Shown piece by piece: positions 2,563 to 21,166 of a DNA stretch of 31,524 nt. Position 1 is the stretch's first letter. Each line of letters starts with the position of its first letter. The position numbers were made by a program, and so were the translations under genes. The notes beneath the pieces are model-generated. The model was not told the origin of the DNA, ran no database searches, and worked only from the letters and a program-made list of their open reading frames with translations. Origin of the DNA: an uncultured Candidatus Saccharibacteria bacterium (lineage in GTDB: Bacteria > Patescibacteriota > Andersenbacteria > UBA10190); assembly GCA_964622915.1 (NCBI GenBank), contig CAZUSC010000021.1, positions 1-31,524 on the forward strand, written 5' to 3'.

Positions 2563-2583
2563 AATTTCTAATTTCTAATTTCT
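2563..2583. repeat. Heptamer tandem repeat (AATTTCT)x3
   Basis: Three exact copies fill most of the atpG-atpD spacer. Confidence 0.85.
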
Positions 2584-2589
2584 AAAAAA

Positions 2590-3480
2590 TTATATGGTTG
2601 CCTGCGCTCCGGCAGAAATTTCTGCCAACTCCTGGGTAATTACCGCCTGTCGGGCGCCGTTATAAGTTAAAGTTAAATCGGAGGTTATCTCTTCGGCATT
2701 ATCAGAAGCATTTTTCATCGCCATCATGCGCATGACTTGTTCGCTGGCATTGGCTTCCAGGGCGGCTTGGTATATTTGCGTATCAATAAATCGCGGAATG
2801 ATAAACTGGAGAACGGCGGCCGGTGAAGGCTCAAAGATGGATTCCGCCACAGTGGTACTAATTTCGGCTGCCTCTGGCAGCAGCTTGGCCGGATCAATGG
2901 GTAGTATATCGCGGCGAACTACCGCTTGGCGCACCATAGAAACAAAATCAGTATAGATAAGACTTACGGAATCAATTTTCTCCTGTTTAAATAAATTAAG
3001 TGCCGTCACAGCAATGGGTTGGACGTCCGTTACCTGGACCTTCGCCGGCCAATCCGTGTAAGTGCCCACCAGTTCAATTCTGCCTGATAACTTGGCAGCA
3101 AGCTGCGCTCCTTTTCGTCCAATGACAATGAGTTTGGTGGAAATGGCCAGTGCGCTATTCTCGGCCACTGTAAGTTCGGATAACAAGACCTTAAAAATAT
3201 TACTGTTATAAGCCCCGGCCAAACCGCGGTCTCCGCTAAAGAGCACAAATAGCTGGCTTTTCACCGGACGCTGGATAAAAAGATCATGGTCTTCCGCTTT
3301 AAGCCGTTGGCGCAGATGTGCAATAGCCTCGCGTATAGCAATAGCGTAAACGCGCGAACGCAATGTTGCTTCCTGCGCCCGGCGCAGCTTGCTGGCTGCC
3401 ACCATTTCCATTGCTTTGGTGATTTGATTGACGTTCTTTACCGACTTGATGCGCCGGCGAATTTGTTGAATTTTAGCCAC
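2590..3480 (-). CDS. atpG: F1 ATP synthase gamma subunit
   Basis: ITKAMEMVAASKLRRAQ, SGDRGLAGAYNSN, MMAMKNASDNA, YNGARQAVITQELAEI. Confidence 0.99.
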   Translation of the reverse strand: MAKIQQIRRRIKSVKNVNQITKAMEMVAASKLRRAQEATLRSRVYAIAIREAIAHLRQRLKAEDHDLFIQRPVKSQLFVLFSGDRGLAGAYNSNIFKVLLSELTVAENSALAISTKLIVIGRKGAQLAAKLSGRIELVGTYTDWPAKVQVTDVQPIAVTALNLFKQEKIDSVSLIYTDFVSMVRQAVVRRDILPIDPAKLLPEAAEISTTVAESIFEPSPAAVLQFIIPRFIDTQIYQAALEANASEQVMRMMAMKNASDNAEEITSDLTLTYNGARQAVITQELAEISAGAQATI

Positions 3481-3489
3481 AGGATTACT

Positions 3490-5031
3490 CTAAGCCAGAT
3501 TATTAGTAAGGCTGGCGACCGCCTGCCGGCCAATGGCTAACATTTTCTCTTTTGCTTCATCGGACAGTTGTCCTGTTTCCTCTATTTCTTTTAACTCATC
3601 CACTGCCTCCCGCCTTACCGCTTCCACCATTAGATCGGCTGCTTCACGGACTTTCTCCGGCGCGATACTGTCAAAAATTCCGCTAGTAGCTCCCAGTAGT
3701 ACAGCTACTTGGTCACTCAAACTAACCGGCTGATATAGACCTTGCTTTAGGACTTCCGTTAAACGCCGGCCGCGCTCAATGCGCTGCTTGGTATCCGGAT
3801 CAAGATCGGTAGAAAGTTGAGCAAAGGCTGCCAGCTTGCGGTATTGGGCCAACTCCAAACGTAACCGACCGGCTACTGACTTCATAGCTTTAGTCTGGGC
3901 GGAACCTCCTACGCGTGAGACCGACAAACCAACGTTGATAGCCGGGCGAATACCTTGGTAGAACAAGTCGCTTTCTAAATAAATCTGACCATCAGTTATC
4001 GAAATTACGTTAGTGGGAATATAAGCCGAAACGTCATTGGATTGCGTTTCAATAATAGGTAAGGCCGTTAACGATCCCCCGCCCTGTTCAGCTGATAGTT
4101 TAGCCGCTCGCTCTAGTAACCGGGAATGCAAATAAAATACGTCACCTGGATATGCTTCACGTCCCGGCGGCCGGCGCAGAAGCAAGGACATTTGCCGGTA
4201 AGCCCAAGCATGCTTAGACAAATCATCATAAACAATTAAAGCGTCTTTACCTTTATCGCGGAAATATTCTCCCATCGCGCAGCCGGCATAGGGCGCGATG
4301 TATTGCAGTGAAGCCGGGTCAGCAGCGGAAGTCATGACCACAATTGTCGATGCCAACGCTCCTTCTTGACGCAGCCGGTCCACAATTCGCGCCACCGTGC
4401 TTTGTTTCTGGCCGATGGAAACATAAATGGAAATTACTCCCGTATTTTGCCGATGCTGATTAATAATTGTATCAATCGCCACCGCCGTTTTGCCGGTTTG
4501 CCTGTCGCCAATGATTAACTCGCGCTGGCCGCGGCCGATGGGGATCATGGCATCAATGGCTTTAATGCCGGTCGGTAAAGGCTGTTTAACAGACTGTCTA
4601 GCAATAACACCGGGCGCAATTTTTTCCACCGCGCTAAATTCCGTTGTCTTAATGGGACCCAGTCCATCTAATGGATTCCCTAATGGATCAACTACCCTTC
4701 CCACCATTGCCTCGCCCACCGGCACTTCCAGAATTTTACCCGTGAGGTGTGCGCCAGCTCCGGCGCGAACCAGTCGATCATCGCCCAAAAGCACTGCTCC
4801 CACTTGATCCTCTTCTAAGTTCAAAGCAAAAGCAAAAACGTCTTGCTGGGCGTCCTCGCTATCCAGCTGAATCATTTCGTTGTATCCGCACCGGCGCAGG
4901 CCGTAAACCCAGACAATGCCGTCGCTAACCTTAGTGACAATACCAACTTCTTCAATGGCCGGAGTTGTTTTAAGGTCAGCAATTGCTGCCTTTAGTTCTT
5001 GCGATAATTCTTGTAATGAAATTCTAGCCAT
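3490..5031 (-). CDS. atpA: F1 ATP synthase alpha subunit
   Basis: Walker [48 protein letters not shown]. Confidence 0.99.
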
Positions 5032-5419
5032 TCGTTTTTTTTCTAATCAGATTAAGTAAGGTAGCAATCGATATATCAAGCTGACCCATTGGCGTCTCCG
5101 CTACCAGGCCGCCTTTCAGGGCTGGGGTAATGGCTGCTTGCAGGTGGCTGGTATTAGCCCCGCTGCTTGCCTGGAATAGACTAGCCAGACGGTCAGCTAG
5201 CTTGGGCGGCAAAGGACGGGCACTGCGCACCTGGATCTCTACCTGTCCGTCTGTCTGCAGACGTAATTTGGCCGCTTCTTTCATCAACACATCCACCTCG
5301 CCGCTCCAGCCGCGAGCAACTACTTCCCTAGCCAACAGAGGTAAAACTTGCTCCCGCGGATATTTTTCCAGTAGTACCAGCATGCCGCGGACAAACTTTT
5401 TACGAGAAACTTTCTCCAT
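5024..5419 (-). CDS. atpH: ATP synthase delta subunit, short form (about 131 aa)
   Basis: Lies between atpF and atpA; C-terminal OSCP-like VRSARPL...[11 protein letters not shown]...LDISI. ATG 5419 preferred over TTG 5431. Confidence 0.85.
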
Positions 5420-5434
5420 ACCCAGTAACAACTA

Positions 5435-5992
5435 TTAAGAAATTCTAGCGGCTGCTTCCTGCAACGCCCGGGCCAATAGTTCAGCGTCTTTTTTTTCATC
5501 CAGCTTGACATCAATAATCTTCTCCGTCGCTGCCACCACCAAGCTTCCTAATTCTCCCTTTATTTGCTGGCGGGCAATGCTGACTTCTTGCTCAATTTTT
5601 GATTTTCCCTGCTTGATAATCTGGTCGGCCCGCGACTGTGCTTCTTCTTCTGCCGCGGACTTAAGCGCCGTAGCTTGTTGCTTGCTTTGCTGCATAATCT
5701 TATGCGCCTGGCCTTCCGCCTGTTTGATAATTTGGTGGCGCTGCCCTTCCGTCTTCTTTTTGGCCTCCTCCACCTCGGCTGCCGTACGGAGGCTTTCTTC
5801 AATCACGGCTTGGCGCTGGGACAGAATGCTCATGATGGGCTTGTAAGCAAACTTCTTCAGCAGCCAAAGTAAAATTGCGAAGTTGACCACTTGCCAAATC
5901 AAGGCACGGACATCCAAGCCAATAGCAGAGATACCGCCAGCCTCTACGGCAAGCGGCGCCTCTTCGGCGGCTAAGGCGACAAGCGTCCACAT
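5435..5992 (-). CDS. atpF: F0 ATP synthase b subunit
   Basis: LIWQVVNFAILLWLLKKFAYKPI membrane anchor followed by a long charged coiled coil. Confidence 0.97.
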   Translation of the reverse strand: MWTLVALAAEEAPLAVEAGGISAIGLDVRALIWQVVNFAILLWLLKKFAYKPIMSILSQRQAVIEESLRTAAEVEEAKKKTEGQRHQIIKQAEGQAHKIMQQSKQQATALKSAAEEEAQSRADQIIKQGKSKIEQEVSIARQQIKGELGSLVVAATEKIIDVKLDEKKDAELLARALQEAAARIS

Positions 5993-6016
5993 ACTCTAAG
6001 TTAACTCCCAATTATA

Positions 6017-6051
6017 AATTTCCATTTTCTATTTTCCAATTTCTAATTTCT
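6017..6051. repeat. Degenerate heptamer tandem repeat x5 (AATTTCC ATTTTCT ATTTTCC AATTTCT AATTTCT)
   Basis: Read directly in the atpE-atpF spacer; same unit as at 2563-2583. Confidence 0.8.
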
Positions 6052-6052
6052 T

Positions 6053-6280
6053 TTACACGAACTTTAGAATCAAAGCCACGACCAGTGAATAGATGGCGAT
6101 GGCTTCGGCAAAAGCCACGACCAGAATCAGAATAGTCTGCAATTTACCGGCCGCCTCCGGATTACGGCCGATTGCTTCCATTGCTTTGGCGCCCATCCAG
6201 CCAATCGCTAGAGCGGGGAAAACGCCGCCCAAGGCGATGGTTAAGCCAGGCATGATAGTTTTTATTGTTTCTGGTTCCAT
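6053..6280 (-). CDS. atpE: F0 ATP synthase c subunit (H+-type)
   Basis: Loop GRNPEA and ion-binding Glu in FAEAIAIY. Lacks the Gln and E-S/T ligands of Na+-binding c subunits. Confidence 0.98.
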
Positions 6281-6308
6281 AGATTTTTATTTATTAACTT
6301 ATTAATTA

Positions 6309-7121
6309 TTAAGTACTAGCACGGTGATGACCTAAACCGTGATTCTCGATAGACAATTGCTCCGGCGCCGCTTCATGCTCGGCGTGCTCGCCGTGTTCGG
6401 AAGTAGCAATTTCCAAAAACACCAGTGTCAGCATGGTAAAGACTAGCGCCTGCACCAACCCAACAAATAATTCTAGACCAAAGAAGGGCAGTGGCGCTAG
6501 CGCTGGCGCCAGATAGGCAATAACCACCAGCAAGACCTCGCCGGCAAAGATGTTGCCAAACAACCGGAAGGAAAAAGAAATCATTTTGGAAAACTCTGAT
6601 ACCAACTCCAGCAGCCCGACAAACAGCAATACTGGGTTAAGACTGAAATACTTGCTCAAATGCTTAAACAGTCCCAGCTCCCGAATAGCATAGACCTGTG
6701 TCATGACGACCGAAATCATAGCCAGCGCTAAAGTGGTATTTAAATCAGCCGTCGCTCCTCGAAAAAGAGGGACCACTCCGTGCTCGGTGGCAATAGTAAT
6801 GGAGCCAAAACCGGGCAGCAGCCCCAACCAGTTATTAACCAAAATGAACGTAAACAGTGTCATTAATAGTGGAAAAAATCGCGCGGCTTTGGCAGAGTCT
6901 TGGGTTACTTGCTCGATCAAATTTAAAATTGCCTCGCTGACTGCTTCCACGGCGTTGGCTAACTTACTAGCAGGCTGAAGGCGGACACTGCGGGCCGCCA
7001 AGTAGAAAAGAGTGAAGATAATAATACTGCCCACCAGACCGGCTAACAAGGAGTTATTAACGGACAGACCGCCTATGTTAAAGACTTCTTCCGCTGCCAA
7101 TGAAATGTGTAAATTAGCCAT
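6309..7121 (-). CDS. atpB: F0 ATP synthase a subunit with His/Glu-rich C-terminal tail
   Basis: FILVNNWLGLLPG, TADLNTTLALA, SFSFRLFGNIFAGE (conserved Arg), ELFVGLVQALVFTML. Confidence 0.98.
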   Translation of the reverse strand: MANLHISLAAEEVFNIGGLSVNNSLLAGLVGSIIIFTLFYLAARSVRLQPASKLANAVEAVSEAILNLIEQVTQDSAKAARFFPLLMTLFTFILVNNWLGLLPGFGSITIATEHGVVPLFRGATADLNTTLALAMISVVMTQVYAIRELGLFKHLSKYFSLNPVLLFVGLLELVSEFSKMISFSFRLFGNIFAGEVLLVVIAYLAPALAPLPFFGLELFVGLVQALVFTMLTLVFLEIATSEHGEHAEHEAAPEQLSIENHGLGHHRAST

Positions 7122-7126
7122 GATTC

Positions 7127-7363
7127 TTAAGATAGTCTTTTAATCTTGCGAGCGATGGCGATAGTAGAAATCACCATGGAGAAAACGAGCGCAACAATGA
7201 TAAATAACGGGGTCGTACCTAAGGTCTTATCTAATTTAATGCCGCCCAAAATTAGTAACACTAAGGGGAGGGCAATAATAAGACCTATTTCTCCCGCCAC
7301 AGCCCACACATTAATAATGGGAGGCGGAGACGAGGGAGGTTTTTGAGAATTTGTCGATTGCAT
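7127..7363 (-). CDS. atpI: AtpZ/AtpI family (ATPase gene 1) small membrane protein
   Basis: First gene of the atp operon; two TM helices with G..LD...GT.PLF motif. Confidence 0.85.
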   Translation of the reverse strand: MQSTNSQKPPSSPPPIINVWAVAGEIGLIIALPLVLLILGGIKLDKTLGTTPLFIIVALVFSMVISTIAIARKIKRLS

Positions 7364-7416
7364 CAGCTAAATTGATTATAACAACAAAAGCGGCAATGAC
7401 TGCCTGCTTTCGCCCG

Positions 7417-7444
7417 ATGATAGTAACCAAAGCCGTTCTGTCAA
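7417..7444 (-). promoter_or_regulatory. Candidate sigma70 promoter of the atp operon
   Basis: Minus strand TTGACA-16 nt-TATCAT. A second exact TATAAT lies at 7375-7380, 11 nt before the atpI ATG. Confidence 0.5.
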
Positions 7445-7484
7445 GGGGTACTATTATTGACACAATACACGCAATATTTCTTAA

Positions 7485-7518
7485 TTAAAACAATTAAAGG
7501 GCAGTACTTTTTTGCCCT
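7485..7518 (-). terminator. Candidate intrinsic terminator downstream of hppA
   Basis: Minus strand AGGGCA-9 nt-TGCCCT followed by TTAATTGTTTT; preceded by a second hairpin GCCGCC/GGCGGC (7527-7547). Confidence 0.45.
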
Positions 7519-7552
7519 CTTGACCTGCCGCCGCTCGCATAGGCGGCTTTCG

Positions 7553-9601
7553 TTACTTAACTAGCAGCGGCGCCAAAGCCAACGTCAAAGTTGCCAGTAA
7601 TTTGATCAAAACGTGAAGGGAAGGTCCGGCGGTGTCTTTGAAAGGATCGCCCACAGTATCTCCAGTGACTGCCGCTTGATGTGTTGGCGATTTTTTACCG
7701 CCGTATTGTCCGGTTTCAATCCATTTCTTGGCATTGTCCCAAGCTCCGCCAGCGTTGTTCATCAAAGTCGCCATCAAAATACCAGCAATGGTACCAACCA
7801 TAATCAACCCTGCTTCTGCTTCTGCTCCCAAAGTTAGCCCAACAATAACAGGCACGGCTACCGCTAGCACACCCGGCGCTATCATCTGACGCAAAGCACC
7901 CCGGGTAGTAATATCAACTGCTTTCGAATAATCAGGTTTAACTTTACCGGTCATGATGCCCGGATTGTCTTTGAACTGTCGTCGTACTTCATTGATAATA
8001 GCGTAAGCTGCCTTGCTAACCGCCCGTATAGCTAAAGAAGAAAATACAAACACTAGCGTGGCTCCAATTAAGGCGCCCACGAATACTTCTACTTTAGCCA
8101 AATCAACAGTTTCGATACGCACTTCTTCTAAGTAAGCAGTAAACAGTAAGAAAGCGGCCAGCGCCGCTGAACCAATGGCATAACCCTTTGTTAATGCTTT
8201 GGTGGTATTACCAGCCGAATCCAGCTTATCCATAACGGCGCGCGATTTTTCGCCCTCACCAGACATTTCCGCAATACCGGCTCCGTTATCAACAATCGGG
8301 CCGAACGTATCCATCGCTAGCACATAAGCAGCGGTTGCCAACATGCCCATGGTAGCAACGGCAGTGCCATATAATCCGCCACCATCAATTCCCGACTGCA
8401 GGCCGAGACGATAAGCAATCAATAACGCGGCAGAAATAGTTAGAACGGTTAAGCCAGTTGATTCCAAACCGACAGCGTAACCCGAAATAATATTAGTAGC
8501 ATGTCCCGTCTGGGAAGATTCGGCGATCTCTTTCACTGGACGATACTTAGCTTCGGTGTAGTACTGCGTAATGTAAATAAAGATAATGCTGGTTATGATA
8601 CCGACTAATCCCGCCCAGAAAAACCACATATTGCCCAGCATGTATTTGGTAACAAAGTAAAAAGAAATGGTCGCCAGAATGGAAGTGATGTAATAACCCC
8701 TGTTCAATGCTTTCATTGGATCTTCGTCTTCCTTGGGTTGCGCTAGCAGCACTCCTATCACTGAAGATACTAGACCAAAGGCCCGTAGTACCAACGGGAA
8801 CACGATGCCAGCCACTCCAAAGACGGGAAAAAGAGCCGCCCCTAAAATCATTGCTCCAATATTTTCTGCGGCAGTTGATTCAAACAAATCCGCTCCGCGA
8901 CCGGCGCAATCCCCCACGTTATCTCCTACTAAATCCGCAATCACGGCTGGGTTACGAGGATCGTCTTCCGGAATACCCGCCTCTATTTTACCGACTAAGT
9001 CAGCGCCGACGTCCGCTGCCTTGGTATAGATTCCGCCGCCTAGCTGGGCGAATAACGCAACAAGGGAAGCGCCAAAGCCATAGCCGACGATCAAAGTTGG
9101 GATTTCTGTTGGCTGATAACCAAGCTGGCGGTAAATTACGAATAAACCGGCAATACCGATTAGGCTTAAGGAAACGATCGTCACCCCGGAAACGGCGCCA
9201 CCGCGCAGCGCAATAGTGAGTGCTGCCGAAAAACTATTCTTGGCCGCGGCGGCCGAGCGCACATTAGCACGCACCGCTACCCACATGCCAATAATTCCGG
9301 AAACTCCCGAGGAAATAGCCCCCAGCAGTAAAGAAATGGCAGTATGCCAGCCGACATCCGCTTTGCCCACCGCCATATACGCAAACAGGAAGCCCAGCGC
9401 TATTACAAATCCAATCAAAGTTATGGTTCGGTATTGGCGTCTTAAGAAAGCATAAGCGCCTTCTTGAATAGCTGCCGCCACCTCTTGCATTGCCGCTGTA
9501 CCTTGGTTCTTACTCATGATCCATGAGTACAGCCAGTAGGCAAAAACCAGCGATCCGGCTGGAAAAGCGAGAGAAATAGCCATGGCGTTAAAATAAGTCA
9601 T
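7553..9601 (-). CDS. hppA: Membrane-bound K+-independent H+-translocating pyrophosphatase
   Basis: GGGIYTKAADVGADLVGK, EDDPRNPAVIADLVGDNVGD, GGAWDNAKK, GDTVGDPFKDTAGP. GNTTKA (Lys) marks the K+-independent class. Confidence 0.97.
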   Translation of the reverse strand: MTYFNAMAISLAFPAGSLVFAYWLYSWIMSKNQGTAAMQEVAAAIQEGAYAFLRRQYRTITLIGFVIALGFLFAYMAVGKADVGWHTAISLLLGAISSGVSGIIGMWVAVRANVRSAAAAKNSFSAALTIALRGGAVSGVTIVSLSLIGIAGLFVIYRQLGYQPTEIPTLIVGYGFGASLVALFAQLGGGIYTKAADVGADLVGKIEAGIPEDDPRNPAVIADLVGDNVGDCAGRGADLFESTAAENIGAMILGAALFPVFGVAGIVFPLVLRAFGLVSSVIGVLLAQPKEDEDPMKALNRGYYITSILATISFYFVTKYMLGNMWFFWAGLVGIITSIIFIYITQYYTEAKYRPVKEIAESSQTGHATNIISGYAVGLESTGLTVLTISAALLIAYRLGLQSGIDGGGLYGTAVATMGMLATAAYVLAMDTFGPIVDNGAGIAEMSGEGEKSRAVMDKLDSAGNTTKALTKGYAIGSAALAAFLLFTAYLEEVRIETVDLAKVEVFVGALIGATLVFVFSSLAIRAVSKAAYAIINEVRRQFKDNPGIMTGKVKPDYSKAVDITTRGALRQMIAPGVLAVAVPVIVGLTLGAEAEAGLIMVGTIAGILMATLMNNAGGAWDNAKKWIETGQYGGKKSPTHQAAVTGDTVGDPFKDTAGPSLHVLIKLLATLTLALAPLLVK

Positions 9602-9607
9602 CTAGGC

Positions 9608-9636
9608 ATGATGAGTACCTGGTCTAATAAAGTCAA
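9608..9636 (-). promoter_or_regulatory. Candidate promoter of hppA (would give a leaderless mRNA)
   Basis: Minus strand TTGACT-17 nt-CATCAT, ending 6 nt before the ATG at 9601. Confidence 0.35.
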
Positions 9637-9698
9637 CTAGAATATTTCCACAATAAAGAAACTGCCTCGGCCACAGCCTGATGCTTTATTGCTAATTC

Positions 9699-10289
9699 CT
9701 ACTGCATTAACTCCAGCGTCGAAAACATCTGTTCAACTGTCTGTGCGTATCCGCGATTATCTGGATCAGCGGCAAGATAGGAGATCATAAGCACACGGTC
9801 GTTGTCCTGCGGCAGAATGATTATTTTATAGCGTCCTTGTCCCTCCAACGTGTACGTCAGTCCCTGGTACCCATTAATTGATATGGGTGTCACTGGTTGG
9901 GCTATATTCCCATTTTCCGAATCACCCTGCAGCTGTTGCTCCACAAAAGCTTTTAGTGACTCATTGCCCCCTGGATATGCTTGGCTCATGATATTGACTA
10001 TCAGCCCATCGTGCACGGCTGATCCCATGGTTTGAGTGGATCCGTACTGAAAAAAAGACACAAAGGCGCCATCCTGATTAAGTTTGACAGAGGACGGATA
10101 ACTTATGGCAAATTTCATTTGATCGTGGCGAAAAGTTTGCCAGTCAGATGGAACCACTGTGGCGGGCGCGGCTGAAGTATTCTCTGCTGATGGTTTGCCC
10201 TGTCGTAAGTCGCGCTGGCTGGCAGCAACGCCTACCAGCAACAAGGCGATAACCACGCTCCAACCGATTAATACATTTTTATTTACCAT
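9699..10289 (-). CDS. Membrane-anchored/exported protein, PsbP-like fold likely
   Basis: N-terminal hydrophobic anchor and low-complexity linker, then W.TF....KFAISYP ... ISINGYQG ... VLMISY, a pattern typical of PsbP/Mog1-like domains. Confidence 0.55.
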   Translation of the reverse strand: MVNKNVLIGWSVVIALLLVGVAASQRDLRQGKPSAENTSAAPATVVPSDWQTFRHDQMKFAISYPSSVKLNQDGAFVSFFQYGSTQTMGSAVHDGLIVNIMSQAYPGGNESLKAFVEQQLQGDSENGNIAQPVTPISINGYQGLTYTLEGQGRYKIIILPQDNDRVLMISYLAADPDNRGYAQTVEQMFSTLELMQ

Positions 10290-12130: not shown

Positions 12131-12514
12131 TCATTTTTTCTTCTTTGACAGCAACTCCGCTTTAAGAATGGCTTGTTCTTGCGCCAGCTCCTTAATGCGC
12201 CGGTCGTAGCGGGTCACCAACACCGAAAAATGCAACGACAATAAAAACAATCCGCCCATTAATAAAAGAAACAGCGCCGCCGGGGCGTAGGAAATTCCTA
12301 CCAAACGTGCAAACCAACTAAGGACAGCGGCAAAGATAGAAAAAATGACGACGGAAATGCTGATTAAAAACCAGATAATCGAATAACCTTCTTTGAGCCG
12401 GTTGTGACGGATTAAATCAATAATCCCCCAAAAAAGCAGAACGCTGCTGCCAATGGCAATGAGCTGAATACGAACGGGAATTTGGCCGGTAATGATGAAC
12501 GAGACAATATCCAT
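12131..12514 (-). CDS. DUF2304-like membrane protein
   Basis: LIR..RLKEGYSIIW, ARLVGISYAPAALF, IKELAQEQAIL; directly downstream of a GT2, the usual pairing. Confidence 0.85.
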   Translation of the reverse strand: MDIVSFIITGQIPVRIQLIAIGSSVLLFWGIIDLIRHNRLKEGYSIIWFLISISVVIFSIFAAVLSWFARLVGISYAPAALFLLLMGGLFLLSLHFSVLVTRYDRRIKELAQEQAILKAELLSKKKK

Positions 12515-12517
12515 AAA

Positions 12518-13228
12518 TTACCGGGCGCGCCGTTTAAAGCCGCTTAAGACAATGGCAATGGCATTGGAGAAAACAAAATAGGTGCCCTTCATCGGCCGGA
12601 CCGATGAGCGGCCGCCGAGGCGCGGCTTCATGACCACCGATATTTCTTTAATCCGAAAACCATTACGCAAAAAAGCCACAATCGATTCTGGCTCGGGAAA
12701 ATCTGACGGGTAATGACGTGCCGCGAAAGTGAGGGCGGCCCGGTTGTAGGCCCGATAACCAGAAGTAGAATCAAAAATGCGCCGGTTAGTAACCAGCCCA
12801 ATAAGATAGGCAAATAAGCGTATGCCGAAAAGCCTGACCACCGATGAGGTATATCCAATGGGTTTTAGAAAACGGCTGCCGATTACCACGTCGGCTTTGT
12901 CTTGTTCCAGAACTTCCAAGAGACGGGGAATAAATTGCGGATCGTGCTGGCCATCGCCGTCAACTTGCATGGCTATGTCATAACCGTTCCTGCTAGCATA
13001 CTTAAAGCCGGTCTGCATCGCTCCGCCGATGCCCAGGTTGATAGGCAGATTAAGCACTACCACCTTGGCTGCCGCCGCTTGGTGTGCTGTAGAATCATAG
13101 GAAGCATCGTTAACCACTACAATATCGGCGGCTGGACAATGGCGGCGAACTTGCTTGATAACACCGCTTACCGACTCTTCCTCGTTATAAGCTGGGATAA
13201 TAATACAAATTTTGGTGTGCCTCAACAT
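12518..13228 (-). CDS. Glycosyltransferase family 2 (DPM1-like, polyprenol-phosphate type)
   Basis: IIIPAYNEEES, VVVNDASYD, NLGIGGAMQTG, QVDGDGQHDP, VIGSRF, DSTSGYRAY. Confidence 0.93.
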   Translation of the reverse strand: MLRHTKICIIIPAYNEEESVSGVIKQVRRHCPAADIVVVNDASYDSTAHQAAAAKVVVLNLPINLGIGGAMQTGFKYASRNGYDIAMQVDGDGQHDPQFIPRLLEVLEQDKADVVIGSRFLKPIGYTSSVVRLFGIRLFAYLIGLVTNRRIFDSTSGYRAYNRAALTFAARHYPSDFPEPESIVAFLRNGFRIKEISVVMKPRLGGRSSVRPMKGTYFVFSNAIAIVLSGFKRRAR

Positions 13229-13276
13229 AAATTAACTAATCAGCATACACAATCCCGAGCGGGGTACCAAGCCGAC

Positions 13277-14509
13277 CTGCGCCTGTTAGTCGTTTGCCCC
13301 TTATATCCTCCTCACACCGGCGGTCTAGAAAACCATGCTAAGCAATTTAATCTAGCCCTGACCAAGGCGGGCTGCAAGATTCTCACTTGGACTCCTCTTA
13401 TTACTAAGGACACACTCACTTACGAAGAAAGTGGCGGAATAACCATAATCCGCTTTCCCGCCTGGGAAATTATCCCGAATTATCCTATACCAAAATTCTG
13501 GCATCCCCTTTTTTGGAAGCAGTGGCGTCTGGTTAGTAAGTTCCTACAACCCTACGACGAACTCAGGGCAAGCCCTATAACCCTGCCTGACCGGCAAGCA
13601 GGCTACAACCTACAACCCATAGTTATATCCCGCACCCGCTTTTTTATAACATCGCCCATGGCCGGCATACTTGCCCGTTTTAAACATTGCCGGTGGGTAC
13701 ATATCGAGCATGGATCAGATTACGTACAAACTTCTAACATATTAGTATCCGCCGTAGCGCGCTTGTACGATCTCACGTTCGGTCGAGCGATATTCTTGGT
13801 GGCAGATGTTTTAGTGGCAAATTCTAAAGCCTCGGCTGCTTTTATTAGGAAGTTGGCTCCCCACCGACAGGTTCGGGTCATCTACCGCGGCGTCGAAGCA
13901 GACCGTATCGCCGCCATTCCACCCGCCAATCTTTCTACAGCCTACAACCTCCAACCTCCAACCTCGATTATCTACGTCGGCCGCCTAATCGCCGGCAAAG
14001 GCGTGTCAGATTTGATTCGCGCCTTCGCCCGCCTCACTGATAAACGCGTGCGCTTGAGTATCGTTGGCAGCGGACCGAAAAAGAAACAGTTGGAGCGTTT
14101 AGCTCAATCACTGCGCGTTTACGAGCGCATTACTTGGCATGGCGATACCGACTGGCCTTCTGTTATCAGTCTGCTTAAAAGTTCCGACATCGCCGTTAAC
14201 CCCAGCTACACCGAGGGCCTGCCCACCGCCGTCATCGAAGCCGCCTTGTGCCGCCGCGCCATCATTGCCACTGACGTCGGCGGCACCGCCGAAGTTATCA
14301 AACATAATACCAGCGGCCTTTTGATTGCGCCGCACGATATTAATGCCTTAGTAAAGAGCCTGAAGGAATTGATTAACGATAGAGTGCAACGCCAACAGTT
14401 AGGCGCCGCTGCTTACCAACAAGTCCAACATCGTTTTAGCTGGGTGAACGCCGCGGCCGAATATCAACAGCTCTTTGGCACTCTGCTTCAAAATAGCGAG
14501 CGGAAGTAG
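13277..14509 (+). CDS. Glycosyltransferase family 4 (GT-B), start uncertain (CTG at 13277), with internal repeat insertions
   Basis: LRLLVVCPLYPPHTGGLENH N-terminus, YVGRLIAGKG, IVGSGP, NPSYTEGLPTAVIEAA, IATDVGG. The ORF-track start (12902) lies inside the antisense GT2. Confidence 0.85.
   Translation: MRLLVVCPLYPPHTGGLENHAKQFNLALTKAGCKILTWTPLITKDTLTYEESGGITIIRFPAWEIIPNYPIPKFWHPLFWKQWRLVSKFLQPYDELRASPITLPDRQAGYNLQPIVISRTRFFITSPMAGILARFKHCRWVHIEHGSDYVQTSNILVSAVARLYDLTFGRAIFLVADVLVANSKASAAFIRKLAPHRQVRVIYRGVEADRIAAIPPANLSTAYNLQPPTSIIYVGRLIAGKGVSDLIRAFARLTDKRVRLSIVGSGPKKKQLERLAQSLRVYERITWHGDTDWPSVISLLKSSDIAVNPSYTEGLPTAVIEAALCRRAIIATDVGGTAEVIKHNTSGLLIAPHDINALVKSLKELINDRVQRQQLGAAAYQQVQHRFSWVNAAAEYQQLFGTLLQNSERK
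13544..13616 (+). repeat. Intragenic heptamer array (CTACAAC/CTATAAC x4) interrupted by 24-nt and 21-nt palindromic inserts
   Basis: CTACAAC | CCTACGACGAACTCAGGGCAAGCC | CTATAAC | CCTGCCTGACCGGCAAGCAGG | CTACAAC CTACAAC; translates as LQPYDELRASPITLPDRQAGYNLQP. Confidence 0.85.
13935..13962 (+). repeat. Second intragenic heptamer array (CTACAGC CTACAAC CTCCAAC CTCCAAC)
   Basis: Read directly; encodes STAYNLQPPT in the linker between the GT-B domains. Confidence 0.75.
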
Positions 14510-14548
14510 AGTGTGGCTCTTTTTGAGCAGCCAGCCTACTTTAATTAC

Positions 14549-14702
14549 GTGTGCCCCGTTACAAAACTTCACCAAATCTCGCCGGCAGCGCTTTCTCTAG
14601 TGCCAGCCCATAATTACTATGAAATCATTTAATCTCTTTATATTTAAGCAACTACTCGGCTCGCTTAGAGCTGCCGGGTGAAGTTGTTGTAACGGGGTGT
14701 GC
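14549..14702. mobile_element. MITE-like insertion (about 142 bp) with target-site duplication at the asnB start codon
   Basis: Direct repeat GTGTGC at 14549-14554 and 14697-14702 flanks terminal inverted repeats CCCGTTACAA-AACTTCACC (14555-14573) / GGTGAAGTTGTTGTAACGGG (14677-14696), with one bulge. Inner stem CCGGCAGC/GCTGCCGG. Confidence 0.75.
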
Positions 14703-16586
14703 GGCATAGCGGGAAAAATTAACTTGGCCGGTAATCCGGTCAAACAAGCAGATATCGTGCGTATGCGCGATGTCCTCGTTCACCGCGGGCCGGACGACCA
14801 GGGTACTTACTTATCACCAAATAAAGCAGTTGGTTTGGGGCACCGGCGCTTGAGTATTATTGATCTTTCGCCCGCCGGTCACCAGCCCATGTCCTATCAA
14901 GACCGCTATTGGATTGTTTATAACGGGGAACTCTATAACTTTCAGACACTGCGATCCTCTCTGGAAAAGAAAGGCCACCGTTTTCACTCCCACACCGATA
15001 CCGAAGTAATTTTGGCGATGTATGCCGAGTATGGCGCCAAATGCCTTCAACATTTCCGGGGCATGTTTGCCTTTGCTATTTATGACGAGCGCGAAGAAAT
15101 ATTGTTCTGTGCCCGCGACCGCACGGGACAGAAGCCATTCAAATATTTCTTTGACGGAAACGTCTTCCTGTTCGCATCGGAGCTAAAAGCCATTTTGACG
15201 CAGAGTGAATACCATAAAGCACCGGATCAACTAGCCATACATCACTATTTGACTTATCAATATGTGCCGGCTCCTCGGACAGGATTTGAGGGTATAAAAA
15301 AATTAGAGCCAGCCCATTACTTGATACTAGACATTAGAAAAAAGAAAATAGAAATTAGTTGCTATTGGAAGCCCGATTTTATTAATAAAGAGGATCGATC
15401 GGAAAAAGAGTGGAGCCGCCTGATCATTGATCAACTAAGCGAGTCCGTTGCGATGCATATGGTATCAGATGTGCCGCTGGGCGCCTTTTTATCGGGTGGT
15501 ATTGACTCCAGCGCTATTGTGGCATTAATGGCCCGTCATTCGGCGCGGCCGGTTAAGACATTCTCGATTGGCTTTCCCGATCAAGAATATAGTGAGCTAA
15601 AATATGCCCGCCTGGTTGCCAAAAAATTCAAGACAGATCATGAGGAATTTATTGTAAAACCTAATGCCCTCGACATACTACCGCAGCTGGCGGCAATTTT
15701 TGAAGAGCCTTATGCCGATAGTAGCGCTGTCCCCACTTACTATCTAAGTCAACTGACCCACCAGCATGTGACGGTTGCCCTTAATGGAGATGGCGGCGAT
15801 GAAAATTTCGCTGGCTATGCCCGCTACTCATGGCACAAAGCTGCTCTGGCACTAGACCGGTGGGGAATTTCGGGATTACCCATGTGGACAGGGCTGGCGA
15901 GCCTGCTGAAAAAAAATATCACAACAACATTAAATTTGCGTGCCCATCGTTTTTTGGAATCCTTATCCGAGCCGACCATGCGGCGTTACGTTACCTACTT
16001 ATGTTATTTCACCAATGCTATGAAAGAGGAGCTCTACCAACCCGCTTTTGCGGCTAGCGTATTTCACCATGACTCGTATGAAATAATGAATACTTTGAGT
16101 AATCAATGGCGAGCAGATCAAGTTGAGAAATCCCTGACGGCTGATTGTTTGTCCTACTTGCCTGACGATTTGCTTGTGAAGGTGGATATGACATCCATGG
16201 CTTCAGCCTTAGAGGTGCGCTCGCCTTTTCTCGACCGAAAATTCATCGAACTTATTGCACGCATTCCCTTTCCTCTTAAACTCCGAGGATTCAACAGACG
16301 TAAATACATCTTTAAAAAAGCCTGCTCATCTTTATTGCCTCATGAAATTACTGCCCGCAAAAAAATGGGGTTTGTGCTGCCGATTGAAAAATGGTTGCGG
16401 GGCGATATGAAGTCCTACGTATATTCGCTGTTAGTCTCCGACAATACTCTAATCACCCAACACTATTTCAGGCCCGCCGCTGTGAAAAAATTACTGGATG
16501 GGCACGTAAACACTGCGGCTAACCTGGCGCCGCCGATTTGGGCATTACTGCAATTGGAATTATGGATGCGCCATTACTTCCCATGA
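14697..16586 (+). CDS. asnB: Asparagine synthase (glutamine-hydrolysing)-like amidotransferase, glycan-locus type
   Basis: N-terminal (M)CGIAG Ntn nucleophile, HRGPD, GHRRLSIIDL..GHQPM, NGELYN, SDTE-like TDTEV, FLSGGIDSS, NGDGGDE, LEVRSPFLD. Confidence 0.95.
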   Translation: MCGIAGKINLAGNPVKQADIVRMRDVLVHRGPDDQGTYLSPNKAVGLGHRRLSIIDLSPAGHQPMSYQDRYWIVYNGELYNFQTLRSSLEKKGHRFHSHTDTEVILAMYAEYGAKCLQHFRGMFAFAIYDEREEILFCARDRTGQKPFKYFFDGNVFLFASELKAILTQSEYHKAPDQLAIHHYLTYQYVPAPRTGFEGIKKLEPAHYLILDIRKKKIEISCYWKPDFINKEDRSEKEWSRLIIDQLSESVAMHMVSDVPLGAFLSGGIDSSAIVALMARHSARPVKTFSIGFPDQEYSELKYARLVAKKFKTDHEEFIVKPNALDILPQLAAIFEEPYADSSAVPTYYLSQLTHQHVTVALNGDGGDENFAGYARYSWHKAALALDRWGISGLPMWTGLASLLKKNITTTLNLRAHRFLESLSEPTMRRYVTYLCYFTNAMKEELYQPAFAASVFHHDSYEIMNTLSNQWRADQVEKSLTADCLSYLPDDLLVKVDMTSMASALEVRSPFLDRKFIELIARIPFPLKLRGFNRRKYIFKKACSSLLPHEITARKKMGFVLPIEKWLRGDMKSYVYSLLVSDNTLITQHYFRPAAVKKLLDGHVNTAANLAPPIWALLQLELWMRHYFP

Positions 16587-17674
16587 GCAAGAAGGTTCTC
16601 CATCTTATTACAGAGCTGGACTTGGGTGGCACAGAAAAACAACTGGCCATGATTTTGCCCCCCCTACAAGCTTCTTTTGATAATGAAGTACTGTGCTTAA
16701 GTGGGCGAGGACCGGTTGGAAAAATTCTGGCCGACAAGGGAGTCCCAGTGCACTACGCCGGCGCCGCTGCCTGGTACGATCCGCGGGTTATTATTAATAC
16801 CGGCCGGATTATCAGCAAGATGAGGCCTGACATTCTTGTGACTTACCTATTTCATGCCGATATGATCGGCCGGTTTATCGGCCGGTTGCTGGGAGTGCGA
16901 CAGATAATCTGCAGCCAGCGCACTAATCTGATGCGCTACGGCTCGAGTTGGAGCTTGCTGGAAAAGCATAGTCAGCGTTTGGTGGATGCCTACGTGGTGC
17001 AAACTAATGTCATGAAGGGAATTTTAATGTCCGGTCTTAAAATACATCCGCTTCTTCTCAATATCATTCCTAATGCGGTGATTTTACCTCCCCTAAAAGA
17101 TCGCTCCATCCTTAAAGCCAAGCTAAGTTTTGATGACAGCGCGCTCCTTATTACCTGTGTCGCTAACCTCAAGCCGGGCAAAGGCCATCAGATTCTTCTT
17201 AAAGCCTTTGCGCAACTCCATGGGCGATATCCTTCTATTCACTTGCTACTGGTAGGATCGGGTCCGGATAAACCAGCTATTAAAAGACAGCTCGGGCAAA
17301 TGGCCAGTGGATCGGCCGTTCATCTGTTGGGTTATCGGCCGGACATAGCCGATATATTGGGTGCCAGTGATATCTTTGTTCTGCCGACCGAACGGGAGGG
17401 CATGAGTAATGCCATTCTAGAGGCTATGGCAGCCGGGCTGCCTTGTGTGATCACAGACATTCCGGTAAACCGAGAGCTCATCAGCAATAACAAAACTGGT
17501 CTGCTCTCTGATTACGACGATGCGCACGACCTGCAAAGCCAGTTAGAGCGTTTAATTAAAGATGAAGATTTGCGCCGACAGCTGGGCCAGGCTGCTCGTC
17601 AGTATGTTCGGGACCACCATTCATTGCCTTACGTCGTTAGAGGTTGGCGGAATTTACTCAACAAAGAAAAATGA
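16583..17674 (+). CDS. Glycosyltransferase family 4 (GT-B)
   Basis: ATG 16583 overlaps the asnB TGA (ATGA). LDLGGTEKQL, VANLKPGKG, FVLPTEREGMSNAILEAMAAGLP. Confidence 0.92.
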   Translation: MSKKVLHLITELDLGGTEKQLAMILPPLQASFDNEVLCLSGRGPVGKILADKGVPVHYAGAAAWYDPRVIINTGRIISKMRPDILVTYLFHADMIGRFIGRLLGVRQIICSQRTNLMRYGSSWSLLEKHSQRLVDAYVVQTNVMKGILMSGLKIHPLLLNIIPNAVILPPLKDRSILKAKLSFDDSALLITCVANLKPGKGHQILLKAFAQLHGRYPSIHLLLVGSGPDKPAIKRQLGQMASGSAVHLLGYRPDIADILGASDIFVLPTEREGMSNAILEAMAAGLPCVITDIPVNRELISNNKTGLLSDYDDAHDLQSQLERLIKDEDLRRQLGQAARQYVRDHHSLPYVVRGWRNLLNKEK

Positions 17675-18462
17675 AAGACGGGCCGCAAGTTTCGATAATC
17701 ATGGCGGTCCACAACGGTGCGGCTACGGTAACCAAGTGCCTGAATAGTGTTGCCCAACAAACATACTCCCGATGGGAAATTATTTGCATTAACGATGCCT
17801 CAACCGACAACAGCGCAACTATTCTAGAACAATGGCGTTCCGCTCACCCAAATGTTTCTTTAGATATCCGGACCCACCAGAACAACATGGGGCTCACAAA
17901 GTCATTAAACGAAGGTATCAAAATATCCCGAGGCAGCTTAATCGCGCGTCTCGATGATGACGATTGGTGGATGGCTGACAAGCTATCCAAACAAGTGGAA
18001 TATTTATCCTCGCATCCCCACTGCGGCATTGTGGGCTGCTGGTATATTAATCAGCGCGGCCCGCGCGCCTTTCCCGTAAGGCTGCCTGTCTCGCCTGCTC
18101 GGATCAAGCACGATATATTTAGGCGTAATCCCTTTGGTCACAGCTGCGTTGTAATTCGGCGTCAGCTATTGATAAAACATGGCCTTTATAATGAAAGCCT
18201 CCAATATGGCCAAGACCGCGAATTATGGTTTAGGCTGTTGCCGAACACGCAGCTGGCCAATATTCCGGAATTTCTCTGTCACCGAAGCGTCGGCCAGCCG
18301 CGTAACTACTTAAAGCAAAGGCAACAAATTCAGCAGCAAATTTTAACCACCCATCAATACATTCAAAAATACCACGCCCCCTGGCATAACTATCTCTATT
18401 TACTTGTACCGATCTTAATTTGGCTAACGCCGCTGTCACTAAAAAAGTTGCTTTATCGATGA
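17671..18462 (+). CDS. Glycosyltransferase family 2 (GT-A)
   Basis: ATG 17671 (ATGA overlap). VSIIMAVHNG, INDASTD, NMGLTKSLN, ARLDDDD, QDRELW. Confidence 0.92.
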   Translation: MKDGPQVSIIMAVHNGAATVTKCLNSVAQQTYSRWEIICINDASTDNSATILEQWRSAHPNVSLDIRTHQNNMGLTKSLNEGIKISRGSLIARLDDDDWWMADKLSKQVEYLSSHPHCGIVGCWYINQRGPRAFPVRLPVSPARIKHDIFRRNPFGHSCVVIRRQLLIKHGLYNESLQYGQDRELWFRLLPNTQLANIPEFLCHRSVGQPRNYLKQRQQIQQQILTTHQYIQKYHAPWHNYLYLLVPILIWLTPLSLKKLLYR

Positions 18463-18487
18463 TAGAGACGGCTGGTATGATCATATC

Positions 18488-19924
18488 GTGTCTATAAGCT
18501 CATACACATATCGCCAACTGCCAAAAATAACTTTTATGGCTGCTTTGTTATTTTCGGCTGTCTTATTGGCACAATATCCCTCCACCACTACTTTTCCCAT
18601 CGGCGGTGATGCCGCACGCTATATTCAGAAATTAGTTGATGTGTATGTTAGCGCCAGTAATGGAAATTATTACGAGAGCCTCCGCTTGCTCGCCACCAAC
18701 ACCCGCTACCCTGGCGCGCAGATAATTTTTTCTGCATTTTCTCTGCTGCCGCTCTCCTGGCCGGATCGATTTATCTGGTGGCTCACTGCTGGTCATCTGT
18801 TTACCAGCCTGGCGCTCGGATTACTCCTTAAAAGAATCGCTGGCTGGCCATCAGCAGTGATCGCCATTGCTGCCTGGTCGCTCGTTACCATTGGACTCAC
18901 TCCTCACACCGAAGCGGGTACGGCCGCGCAGCTTTGGTCGCTGCCGCTGGTTCCTCTTTTTTTCTATATGATCGCACGCCAATCATATGCCGGAGTAATC
19001 GCCATAGTGGCTGCCAGTTTTTTTGTTCATCCATTTACCGCTGTTGTGTTAATGTTAGCGACGGTTTTGTCGCTACCCGCTTTGCTATTGTTGCATCAGC
19101 GTATACCCGTCGACCAAAAAAGGTTTTATATTTTTTGGATTGGGGTCGGCCTAAGCATGATAGCGGCCGGCCTTCTGGCAACGATCCGCTATTATTTAGC
19201 GGTGGCAGACCTAGTGGATGATTATTACAGTGTGTCCATCACTGATTGGCTGCGTTCACCCTTAGGTCCTTTTATTATTTGTGCTCCCTTTGGATTTTAT
19301 ATTTTATTCCAGCGAACCAGACATCAGCTCATAACATTTAGTACACTTGCCGTTTTTCTCTTTCTATCCATTCTACTAACCTTCAACGATGTCTTCGGCG
19401 TTCATCTTATGGTCGATCGCTGGCAGTCTTATGGAGTGATGAGCCTTGTTACCTTAGCCGCTTTGGCTCTGCCAAAACTATTGTCAGTCGTGTTTAATAA
19501 AATTTGGATTCGCGCGGCATTTGCCGTCCTGTTATTCCTGGCACTGGGACTACAGACTTGGCAGAACAACAGCCGGATATTTGCCTACTACGAATCCCCC
19601 GGCCGCTATGCCCGTCTACACCCGGAAGAAAGACAAGCAATTGAATGGTTAAAAAATAACACACCGTCCAGTTCCGTAATCGTTTCGACGCGGGCTAACC
19701 GTCACAGTGACTGGATACCTATTCTTGGCGATCGCCAGTGGCAAGGACTAACGGAGAGTGATCAATTTTGGCAGACTTTTCCCCCGCCCTCGAGTCCTTA
19801 CACTCATGCTGTTTTTTTTCTCCACCGGGAAAAACCAGCGGATGTTTTTCCTGCCGCCGACACTCTGCCAGTAGTGTATCAAAACGATAGTGCTGTAATT
19901 TATGATCTCCAGAACAACAACTAG
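18488..19924 (+). CDS. Polytopic membrane protein, probable GT-C-fold glycosyltransferase
   Basis: About 10-11 TM helices; first-loop acidic motif IGGDAARY; soluble C-terminus AIEWLKNNTP...IVS...W...VVYQND..VIY typical of GT-C-like proteins. Confidence 0.6.
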   Translation: MSISSYTYRQLPKITFMAALLFSAVLLAQYPSTTTFPIGGDAARYIQKLVDVYVSASNGNYYESLRLLATNTRYPGAQIIFSAFSLLPLSWPDRFIWWLTAGHLFTSLALGLLLKRIAGWPSAVIAIAAWSLVTIGLTPHTEAGTAAQLWSLPLVPLFFYMIARQSYAGVIAIVAASFFVHPFTAVVLMLATVLSLPALLLLHQRIPVDQKRFYIFWIGVGLSMIAAGLLATIRYYLAVADLVDDYYSVSITDWLRSPLGPFIICAPFGFYILFQRTRHQLITFSTLAVFLFLSILLTFNDVFGVHLMVDRWQSYGVMSLVTLAALALPKLLSVVFNKIWIRAAFAVLLFLALGLQTWQNNSRIFAYYESPGRYARLHPEERQAIEWLKNNTPSSSVIVSTRANRHSDWIPILGDRQWQGLTESDQFWQTFPPPSSPYTHAVFFLHREKPADVFPAADTLPVVYQNDSAVIYDLQNNN

Positions 19925-20240
19925 AAACATCTTTGCCTGGCTTCTGCTCGCCTCGGCTGTCTTATCACAAACACCCGTGCCTTTAATCATTGTTCTGGTG
20001 GTAGGGGCTGTAGCCACCATAGGCTTACTATTGGCTCTGGCGGCGGTTAGAGCCGTTTTATTGCTACTTTTGCCTGCTTGGCTACTAATCATAGGGATAT
20101 ACCTTCACTTACCTCTTACCGCCAACTTACCCCTGTTCGTTCGACTAATGAGTGTTTGTCTTGTTTTAGGAGGCCTTTTCTCGGTGGGTGTTGGCTTGAT
20201 CATAGTTTGGCGCACTACCCAAAAAACAAATTCTGTTTAG
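19902..20240 (+). CDS. Small hypothetical membrane protein (3-4 TM)
   Basis: Almost entirely hydrophobic 112-aa ORF; overlaps the upstream gene by 23 nt and ends 11 nt before the next. Confidence 0.6.
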   Translation: MISRTTTRNIFAWLLLASAVLSQTPVPLIIVLVVGAVATIGLLLALAAVRAVLLLLLPAWLLIIGIYLHLPLTANLPLFVRLMSVCLVLGGLFSVGVGLIIVWRTTQKTNSV

Positions 20241-20251
20241 ACTTATAAGTT

Positions 20252-21166
20252 ATGAACAAATATGATCAAGCAGAGATTGACCTAACGTCTCTGCTTCAAA
20301 GGGCACTAAAGACTCGGCCGCGGCAAGGGCCGGCCATCACCCCTCTTGATATATTTGGTCAAAAAATAAAATTTTACGGCCAAGCTGTCCTTTATCGGCT
20401 GGGAATCTGGCAGCGACTTGTATCATCAAACCTAGCCATCGGCTGGTTTGATGATTTTCGTCATTACTGGATGCATGAGCTGGACATGCGGCGAATTGAC
20501 CTGCCAGATTTTTTTTACTTAAGAGGAGTTTATCGCTCCCGCTTTCAGGCTGTCGCCGTCAGCCAGACCCAGGAAGAGGACGCCGCTTTTCTCACGCCCT
20601 GGCAGCGTGCAGCCACCCTTTATCTGCTGTTTTCGTACGTCTATAAGCTAGCACTACATCCTATTTATATTTGGCAAATTAAGAATTTTATTAAGCGCGG
20701 TAACGCTGTCTGTGAATACGGCTGCGGTGTTGCTCCGGTCCTCGGCAATCTAGCCCATTTCTACCCGGACCGGCGGCTCACACTAACTGGTGCTGATATT
20801 CCGACCATCATGCTTCACTATGCCCGTTGGCGCCTGCAGAATTTTAAAAACGTAACCATCCAACAAATCGACCCCAATAATGACGCCCCGCTTACTGATC
20901 AATATAATCTAATTACTTGCCTGACTGTTTTCGAGCATTTGCCCCGCCCGCTGGCAATTGTTAAACACTTGCATGACCATCTAAAACCGCGCGGATATTT
21001 TGTTTTTGACTACATCAAAGCCGCCGGCACAGGGCTGGACACGGCTGGGGCGGTGCGGGAACGCCAACAGGTCCTAGACTTTGTTCGCAGTAACTTTGCT
21101 GTGGTGAAAGGCAAGATACCCGACGAGAACGTAAACATTAAAATGGTAATCTGCCGAAAGATTTAA
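20252..21166 (+). CDS. Class I SAM-dependent methyltransferase
   Basis: VCEYGCG motif I, GADI, YNLITCLTVFEHL, LKPRGYFVFD; unassigned N-terminal region of about 140 aa. Confidence 0.85.
   Translation: MNKYDQAEIDLTSLLQRALKTRPRQGPAITPLDIFGQKIKFYGQAVLYRLGIWQRLVSSNLAIGWFDDFRHYWMHELDMRRIDLPDFFYLRGVYRSRFQAVAVSQTQEEDAAFLTPWQRAATLYLLFSYVYKLALHPIYIWQIKNFIKRGNAVCEYGCGVAPVLGNLAHFYPDRRLTLTGADIPTIMLHYARWRLQNFKNVTIQQIDPNNDAPLTDQYNLITCLTVFEHLPRPLAIVKHLHDHLKPRGYFVFDYIKAAGTGLDTAGAVRERQQVLDFVRSNFAVVKGKIPDENVNIKMVICRKI

Follow-up and report, generated by a model that had tools for sequence, protein, structure and literature searches.

A small mobile hairpin inserted exactly on the start codon of an asnB-type amidotransferase gene, and its predicted effect on translation

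Introduction

The locus described here raises a simple question. The hexamer GTGTGC, which spells the start codon and the catalytic cysteine codon of an asnB-type amidotransferase gene, occurs twice, on either side of a short segment with inverted repeats at its ends: is this the mark of an insertion and, if so, what would become of the gene whose start it occupies? The locus lies in the glycosyltransferase-rich polysaccharide cluster of a 31,524-nt stretch of DNA (hereafter the window, meaning the whole stretch that was analysed), which also carries an F-type ATP synthase operon and an H+-pyrophosphatase gene. Bacterial MITEs typically fold into long, stable stem-loops (PMC3184786, PMC10969869), and sequestration of a host start codon by the stem formed from the terminal inverted repeats (TIRs) is not among the modes of action given for them in a 2024 review (PMC10969869). 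A sequence-only reading of the window had taken the segment for a recent MITE-like insertion that buries the asnB start in a hairpin.

Results

Architecture of the element

Along the window the order is TTTAATTAC GTGTGC CCCGTTACAAAACTTCACC, then an AT-rich core, then GGTGAAGTTGTTGTAACGGG GTGTGC GGCATAGCG; within 14540-14710 the left copy is preceded by tttaattac and the right copy is followed by ggcatagcg (Table 1). The left GTGTGC retains its native AT-rich upstream context (ctttaattac). The sequence-only reading had described GTGTGC on both sides of a 142-bp segment with TIRs, and this is confirmed, with TIRs of 20 and 21 nt whose arms can pair at 20/20 positions; a 1-nt indel accounts for the extra base of the right arm, and the outer 11 nt are perfect. 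Its equivalent reading of the ends also holds: the boundaries may be drawn at 14554-14697, giving a 144-bp element with CCCCG/CGGGG ends and a 4-bp TGTG duplication in place of the 6-bp duplication with CCCG/CGGG ends, and the two are equally compatible with the sequence.

Table 1. Coordinates of the element, the asnB gene and their neighbours in the window
Feature	Position	Strand	Remarks
Upstream GT4 glycosyltransferase	12944..14509 (also given as 12902-14509)	+	Stop 39 nt before old asnB start
Left target-site duplication copy, GTGTGC	14549..14554	+	Old asnB start and Cys codon
uORF1	14549..14632	+	Created by insertion; old start, 27 codons into left arm, TAA 14630-14632
Left TIR, CCCCGTTACAAAACTTCACC	14554..14573	+	20 nt
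Inserted non-autonomous element, AT-rich core	14555..14696	.	142 bp with 6-bp duplication; absent from L007
Inner inverted-repeat arm	14582..14592	+	Pairs with 14667-14677; lengthens hairpin
uORF2	14619..14681	+	Inside element; ATG and 20 codons, MKSFNLFIFKQLLGSLRAAG followed by stop
Inner inverted-repeat arm	14667..14677	+	Partner of 14582-14592
Right TIR, GGTGAAGTTGTTGTAACGGGG	14677..14697	+	21 nt; one base more than left arm
Right target-site duplication copy, GTGTGC	14697..14702	+	Functional GTG start and catalytic Cys codon of asnB
asnB-type glutamine-hydrolysing amidotransferase	14697..16586	+	629 aa, N-terminal Cys; begins (M)CGIAGK
Downstream GT4 glycosyltransferase	16583..17674	+	Start overlaps asnB stop (ATGA)
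Downstream GT2 glycosyltransferase	17671..18462	+	Start overlaps GT4 stop (ATGA)

The element encodes no transposase and contains no ORF of more than 27 codons (the longest internal ones have 20-27), and no transposase was found in the 31.5-kb window with Pfam. A consensus scan of the element found neither a sigma-70-type promoter nor an intrinsic terminator, and thus supports an effect on transcription neither way. None of the Rfam 15 families matched the element at gathering thresholds; by E-value the only match, generic to hairpins, was with a plant miRNA precursor and scored 25.8 bits, the threshold being 140.

A different reading of the ends starts from the TTAC that lies directly 5' of the left GTGTGC (14545-14548). 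IS608 inserts 3' of TTAC, and the segment could be a derivative of an IS200/IS605-type, single-strand-transposing element that entered there without duplicating its target, the second GTGTGC being a coincidence. This is very unlikely: a 6/6 flanking direct repeat would arise by chance in about 1/4096 cases, no TnpA/TnpB gene is present in the window, and the ends pair mutually as TIRs instead of forming the separate subterminal hairpins of IS200/IS605 palindromic elements, with which only the TTAC 5' flank agrees.

Filled and empty alleles

The insertion is absent from a near-identical strain represented by a public Logan contig from sample ERR3478687 (L007). In DNA alignments, positions 1-2406 of this contig correspond to window 12149-14554 at 100% and positions 2401-8145 to window 14697-20441 at 99.93%. 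Exactly 6 nt, GTGTGC, are common to both blocks, and the contig has a single GTGTGC, no element and no footprint. It reads TTAATTAC-GTG-TGC-GGC, an empty site, and this is exactly the sequence that, in the sequence-only reading, removal of the element restores; that reading had also proposed looking for strains with an empty site. A second Logan contig, from sample ERR3478686 (L001), begins inside the element at window 14669, with the right TIR at its start, and continues across the right junction, so that it shows the right end alone. Five SNPs separate this contig from the window, one of them common to L007, and between the two filled haplotypes asnB has two nonsynonymous and two synonymous differences, with its reading frame intact.

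At least three haplotypes are therefore represented, two filled (window and L001) and one empty (L007), and because of this distribution the locus is an insertion/absence polymorphism within one population, among strains that are >99.8% identical, with a 6-bp or 4-bp target-site duplication. The same three sources make up the 90% protein cluster of AsnB, namely P0122 (window), a 607-aa protein (L001) and P0121 (L007), and an exact look-up of the upstream GT4 protein matched L007 only. The source is a metagenome, and assemblies can go wrong at palindromes, but a chimeric or mis-joined contig is scarcely credible, since the existence of at least three haplotypes, two filled and one empty, rules out an assembly artefact; in addition, the right junction was recovered independently in L001, from another run and with another assembler, and L007 is collinear with the window to the left and to the right of the element. 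The insertion is thus genuine and recent and lies exactly on the asnB start codon, and the empty allele bears out what had been proposed from the TIRs and the target-site duplication.

In distant relatives (61% amino-acid identity) the gene order DUF2304, GT2 / GT4-asnB-GT4-GT2 is conserved, and the asnB ATG-TGC lies 5 nt past the upstream GT4 or overlaps it, with no element between. Because these syntenic relatives lack the element between GT4 and asnB, insertion in the lineage of the window is the parsimonious direction of change. The opposite course, in which the filled state is older and L007 was emptied by precise excision (by a transposase, or by palindrome-stimulated slippage between the 6-bp repeats), is improbable. 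Recombination between the 6-mers would leave just such an exact empty site, with a single GTGTGC and no footprint, and the element is present on two haplotypes and absent from one; a never-occupied site, however, looks equally exact, three haplotypes cannot polarise the event, and the distant relatives are without the element at this position. Were the filled state nevertheless the older one, the locus would be a reversible switch.

The same relatives, in which GT4 and asnB abut or overlap, bear on the idea that the hairpin is a native regulatory leader of asnB (an attenuator or riboswitch-like structure) that was deleted in L007. A strong, statistically unusual hairpin right on the start codon speaks for such a leader, but the relatives do not have it, no Rfam family matches it, its loop is unrelated AT-rich sequence, and TIRs together with an exact 6-bp direct repeat are the signature of transposition, which makes a native leader very unlikely indeed.

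The asnB gene and its neighbourhood

The AsnB protein scores 489 bits against NCBIfam TIGR01536, asparagine synthase (glutamine-hydrolysing), for a cutoff of 267; the nearest model is TIGR03108, the EPS-locus amidotransferase, and its cluster has Pfam GATase_6/7 and Asn_synthase domains. Judged by these profiles it is a member of the class II (Ntn) glutamine amidotransferase / asparagine synthase B family. In class II (Ntn) amidotransferases the Cys is the mature N-terminus. The best 120 database relatives are 625-632 aa long at 100% query coverage, and among the relatives inspected the homologues begin MCGI[AVT]GK. Because the homologues begin MCGI and cover the whole query, GTG 14697 is, by this comparison, the true asnB start, and the Cys that follows it the mature N-terminus. 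The upstream in-frame GTG 14513, which would add an N-terminal propeptide, is not taken for the normal start, as the homologues begin MCG and the upstream frame is closed in the relatives. All of the named relatives come from metagenome genomes of the CPR (Moranbacteria/Patescibacteria), at 56-61% identity, and for this reason a CPR/Patescibacteria origin of the window appears likely.

The sequence-only reading had gone further and held that only an insertion that regenerates the start-Cys junction could be tolerated. No special regeneration is needed, because any target-site duplication that spans GTG-TGC leaves the right junction intact automatically; selection need only tolerate an insertion, provided that its duplication takes in the complete start codon.

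Both public asnB gene calls appear to be wrong because of the element. The protein deposited for the window (P0122) has 607 aa and starts at Met23, having lost the catalytic Cys because of the insertion. Its counterpart from the empty allele (P0121, L007 2365-4290) has 641 aa and begins MALFEQPAYFNYVCGIAGK, which is window upstream sequence read into asnB; called from GTG 14513, it is 12 codons too long.

The coupling of asnB with the following GT4 and GT2 genes, which had also been proposed, is plausible given the ATGA overlaps at 16583 and 17671. On the other side, the true start of the upstream GT4 is probably later than 12944. Near the expected start there is no ATG, and a candidate GTG at about 13216 overlaps the start of a divergent GT2 (window 12518-13228, minus strand) that lies opposite the upstream GT4, with promoter positions that are not obvious. 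In relatives the divergent GT2 and GT4 genes adjoin with essentially no spacer (L010 8091-8807 / 8808-9995). The stop of the upstream GT4 is straddled by an 11-bp imperfect inverted repeat, CACTCTGCTTC / GAAGTAGAGTG, at 14479-14513, before the old asnB leader.

Predicted folding of the transcript

A pairing of 14548-14573 with 14677-14703 over about 26 bp, covering the start codon, had been read from the sequence. RNAfold returns the same pairing, as 26 bp interrupted by one bulge; the GUGUGC copies pair with each other, four of the pairs there being G-U, and the inner repeat adds further pairs. The predicted hairpin has a free energy of -57.2 kcal/mol, the bases of the asnB start codon are unpaired with a probability of 0.00-0.35, and the shuffle z-score of the fold is -3.35 as RNA and -5.07 as DNA. 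Opening the region from -15 to +12 around the asnB start, within a -200/+100 context, is predicted to cost 31.4 kcal/mol in the filled allele as against 12.6 in the empty allele; for 27 other starts in the window the cost is 8.8 +/- 3.2 kcal/mol with a maximum of 16.2, which places the filled allele at z = 7.1.

Shine-Dalgarno motifs are rare in the window, with GGAG upstream of 3/28 starts. The starts are instead preceded by AT-rich sequence (mean GC 0.37) with TTAGA/TAATT motifs; TTAGA is about 14-fold enriched in the 20 nt upstream of the 28 gene starts (6/28, where 0.42 are expected), and many of these starts follow TAATT-like AT-rich sequence. These motifs suggest that the lineage has a non-Shine-Dalgarno signal for initiation, or else a promoter-proximal motif. 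The upstream context of asnB is ctttaattacGTG in the empty allele and gttgtaacgggGTG in the filled allele.

Two short ORFs precede asnB in the filled allele (Table 1), of which uORF2 is in frame with asnB. They enter the main rival to a simple off-switch, in which the insertion is real and functionally near-neutral: ribosomes that end at the upstream GT4, or that initiate at uORF1 and then at uORF2, would unwind the stem, and asnB would be translated by termination-reinitiation at close to the normal level. Thus uORF1 keeps the native start context and its start, the old asnB start, is locally easy to open (about 5 kcal/mol for -5 to +5), uORF2 has a start context (cataattact) typical of the window and a stop 15 nt ahead of the asnB GTG, and two haplotypes still carry the filled allele with the ORF intact. 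On the other hand, chance often produces ORFs of 20-27 codons where sequence is AT-rich, and the start of uORF1 itself sits in the base of the stem, where opening -15 to +12 costs 17.6 kcal/mol. Near-neutrality is therefore possible, though we think it rather unlikely. Ribosomal bypassing between the two GTG-TGC copies, in the style of T4 gene 60, was rejected as a further route, since the ribosome would have to cross 148 nt and carries no nascent peptide when it is at a start codon.

Search for related copies

No second copy of either TIR arm was found in the 31.5-kb window with up to 3 mismatches (0 matches in 100 shuffles). Exact TIR scans with CCCCGTTACAA N0-1 AACTTCACC were run over collections that exclude the source genome and did not return the window itself. 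Among GTDB species representatives there was one match, in a 72% GC Embleya replicon, which is attributed to chance (about 2 expected), and the JGI metagenomes gave four contigs representing three independent loci, the number expected by chance for a 20-nt pattern. One of these (L005) was rejected as a sibling because it is a chance match in a high-GC CDS. A second (L003, 331-373) lies in a SusC/TonB-receptor-like CDS, where it encodes GEVIVTG; it also shares a collinear 13-mer, AGCGCTTTCTCTA, with window 14587-14599 (shuffle P about 0.004), and is probably a chance match as well. The remaining two contigs (L004 10945-10977 and L006 693-725) show the same locus of a 36-38% GC organism, in which CCCCGTTA-gaaag-GGTGAAGTTTTGTAACGGGG, an exact 20-nt TIR copy with an 8-nt inverted partner, forms a 33-nt hairpin at the 3' end of a gene and supplies its last codons and stop; the gene appears MGMT-like from a reading of its translation. 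This mini-hairpin could be what is left of an element of the same family, or could have arisen by chance.

Six-frame peptides of the element had no match at E <= 10 among 5.8 billion proteins. In IMG/VR a 17-nt pattern gave two solo matches without a partner arm (17-19 nt, in viral contigs) and the paired-ends pattern none, and blastn against PLSDB plasmids and INPHARED phages returned nothing relevant. An autonomous IS with matching ends was found neither in the window (Pfam) nor in the TIR scans. The search for sibling MITEs and an autonomous IS that the sequence-only reading had proposed thus found none in these collections, from which the source genome is absent, and a multi-copy family with a parent IS is therefore putative. 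The contig L001 may carry a hint of further copies. Its position 1 is 29 nt inside the right end of the element and its first 31-mer corresponds to window 14669-14699; the Logan assemblies presumably used a de Bruijn graph with k = 31, and a break at this point is weakly suggestive of a right end that is repeated elsewhere in the sample, although falling coverage at the palindrome would have this effect too.

Discussion

A MITE-type insertion at GTGTGC, together with hairpin-reduced initiation at asnB, is the joint best explanation of the locus, to which we assign a probability of roughly 0.6. A small, non-autonomous TIR element of 142-144 bp transposed into the GTGTGC of the asnB start and Cys codons and duplicated its target (6 bp, or 4 bp TGTG), so that the right copy preserves the asnB reading frame and the left copy remains with the native upstream context. 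On the GT4-asnB-GT4-GT2 transcript the arms would then form a hairpin of about 37 bp, within which lie the asnB GTG and the preceding 20 nt, and the insertion also swaps out the AT-rich, unstructured context typical of starts in this genome. Independent initiation at asnB is predicted to be strongly reduced because the hairpin covers the start and the native context is replaced, and because of the ATGA overlaps the next two glycosyltransferases would probably be reduced as well, through coupling and possibly Rho polarity. The filled allele would then be hypomorphic or off for a portion of the surface-polysaccharide cluster, with residual expression supplied by ribosomes that melt the stem as they translate uORF1/uORF2. 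As modelled from the folds, the insertion probably throttles asnB translation; asnB in the filled allele does not obviously look like a dead gene, however, because that allele is found on at least two haplotypes with an intact asnB frame. The off-switch, and its reversal by excision, that the sequence-only reading had put forward are both hypotheses, and the empty allele may simply be the ancestral one.

A more ambitious proposal would make the locus a reversible, heritable, MITE-based phase-variation switch acting on surface-glycan amidation and glycosylation genes, with excision restoring the start. Here, sequestration of the start codon would silence asnB-GT4-GT2, the duplicated GTGTGC and the palindrome would serve as a substrate for precise excision, and uORF2, a mini-ORF ending just before the start, would possibly tune the switch. 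Such a switch is a long shot.

In structure, the element is a bacterial MITE-like element, because it combines TIRs, a direct target duplication, a length below 200 bp, a core without transposase, a long, stable stem-loop and the existence of both occupied and empty sites. These features, together with a position next to or in a gene, are those of bacterial MITEs (Delihas 2011, PMC3184786; 2024 review, PMC10969869). It differs from them in that one copy has been found so far, with no parent IS in the collections scanned, and its position is unlike the usual one in that the target duplication consists of the start codon and codon 2. The Correia repeat-enclosed elements of Neisseria (CREE, about 100-155 bp) are similar in size, likewise lie directly upstream of genes and are strain-polymorphic. 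Correia elements duplicate TA, unlike the 4-6 bp (GTGTGC or TGTG) duplicated here, and they carry promoters and an IHF site, whereas no promoter consensus was found in the present element; the host phylum is also another one, and the sequences appear to be unrelated. In read-through transcripts of Correia elements the TIR stem is bound or cleaved by RNase III and expression of the adjacent gene is changed (PMC10969869); by analogy, RNase III cleavage of the long stem could be a further route of down-regulation at asnB.

Two further comparisons concern the position of the element and the hiding of the start. Like the Rickettsia palindromic elements (RPE; PMC3184786), the element is small, palindromic, mobile and tolerated in or at the edge of a coding sequence. 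The RPEs are in frame and translated within the protein, whereas the present element lies outside the asnB ORF, whose start is re-created by the duplication. Fold-back inhibition of IS10 and IS50 offers the nearest parallel to the proposed hiding of the start: on transcripts entering from outside, sequence near the end of the IS pairs with the initiation region of the transposase gene and hides it. In both cases pairing by an element end would keep ribosomes from an initiation region, but the hidden start of IS10 and IS50 is that of their own transposase and the one hidden here would be that of a host gene, asnB.

The event is of an ordinary kind in an unusually neat position; what stands out is the exact placement on a start codon, the public availability of both alleles and the size of the predicted initiation penalty. 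The two alleles form a natural pair that differ by one small mobile hairpin on the start codon; one flank is identical over 2.4 kb, and the other flank is 99.93% identical. They provide a ready-made experiment on what it costs to have a TIR stem lying across the initiation region when a genome does not depend on Shine-Dalgarno sequences. The pair also points to active or recently active DNA transposition in a probable CPR/Patescibacteria lineage, and to our knowledge few mobile elements have been described in the CPR/Patescibacteria. Furthermore, the insertion lies inside a surface-polysaccharide cluster, and on/off variation there would alter the cell surface seen by hosts and phages. For annotation, start prediction that is aware of such elements would mend both asnB calls.

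Another inverted repeat is found at a distance from asnB, at the very start of the contig. There, window 16-47 forms a perfect 15-bp hairpin with a 2-nt loop (TTTACTACCATATAT/ATATATGGTAGTAAA) downstream of a minus-strand gene ending at 94, and it is likely to be a terminator or a contig-end feature.
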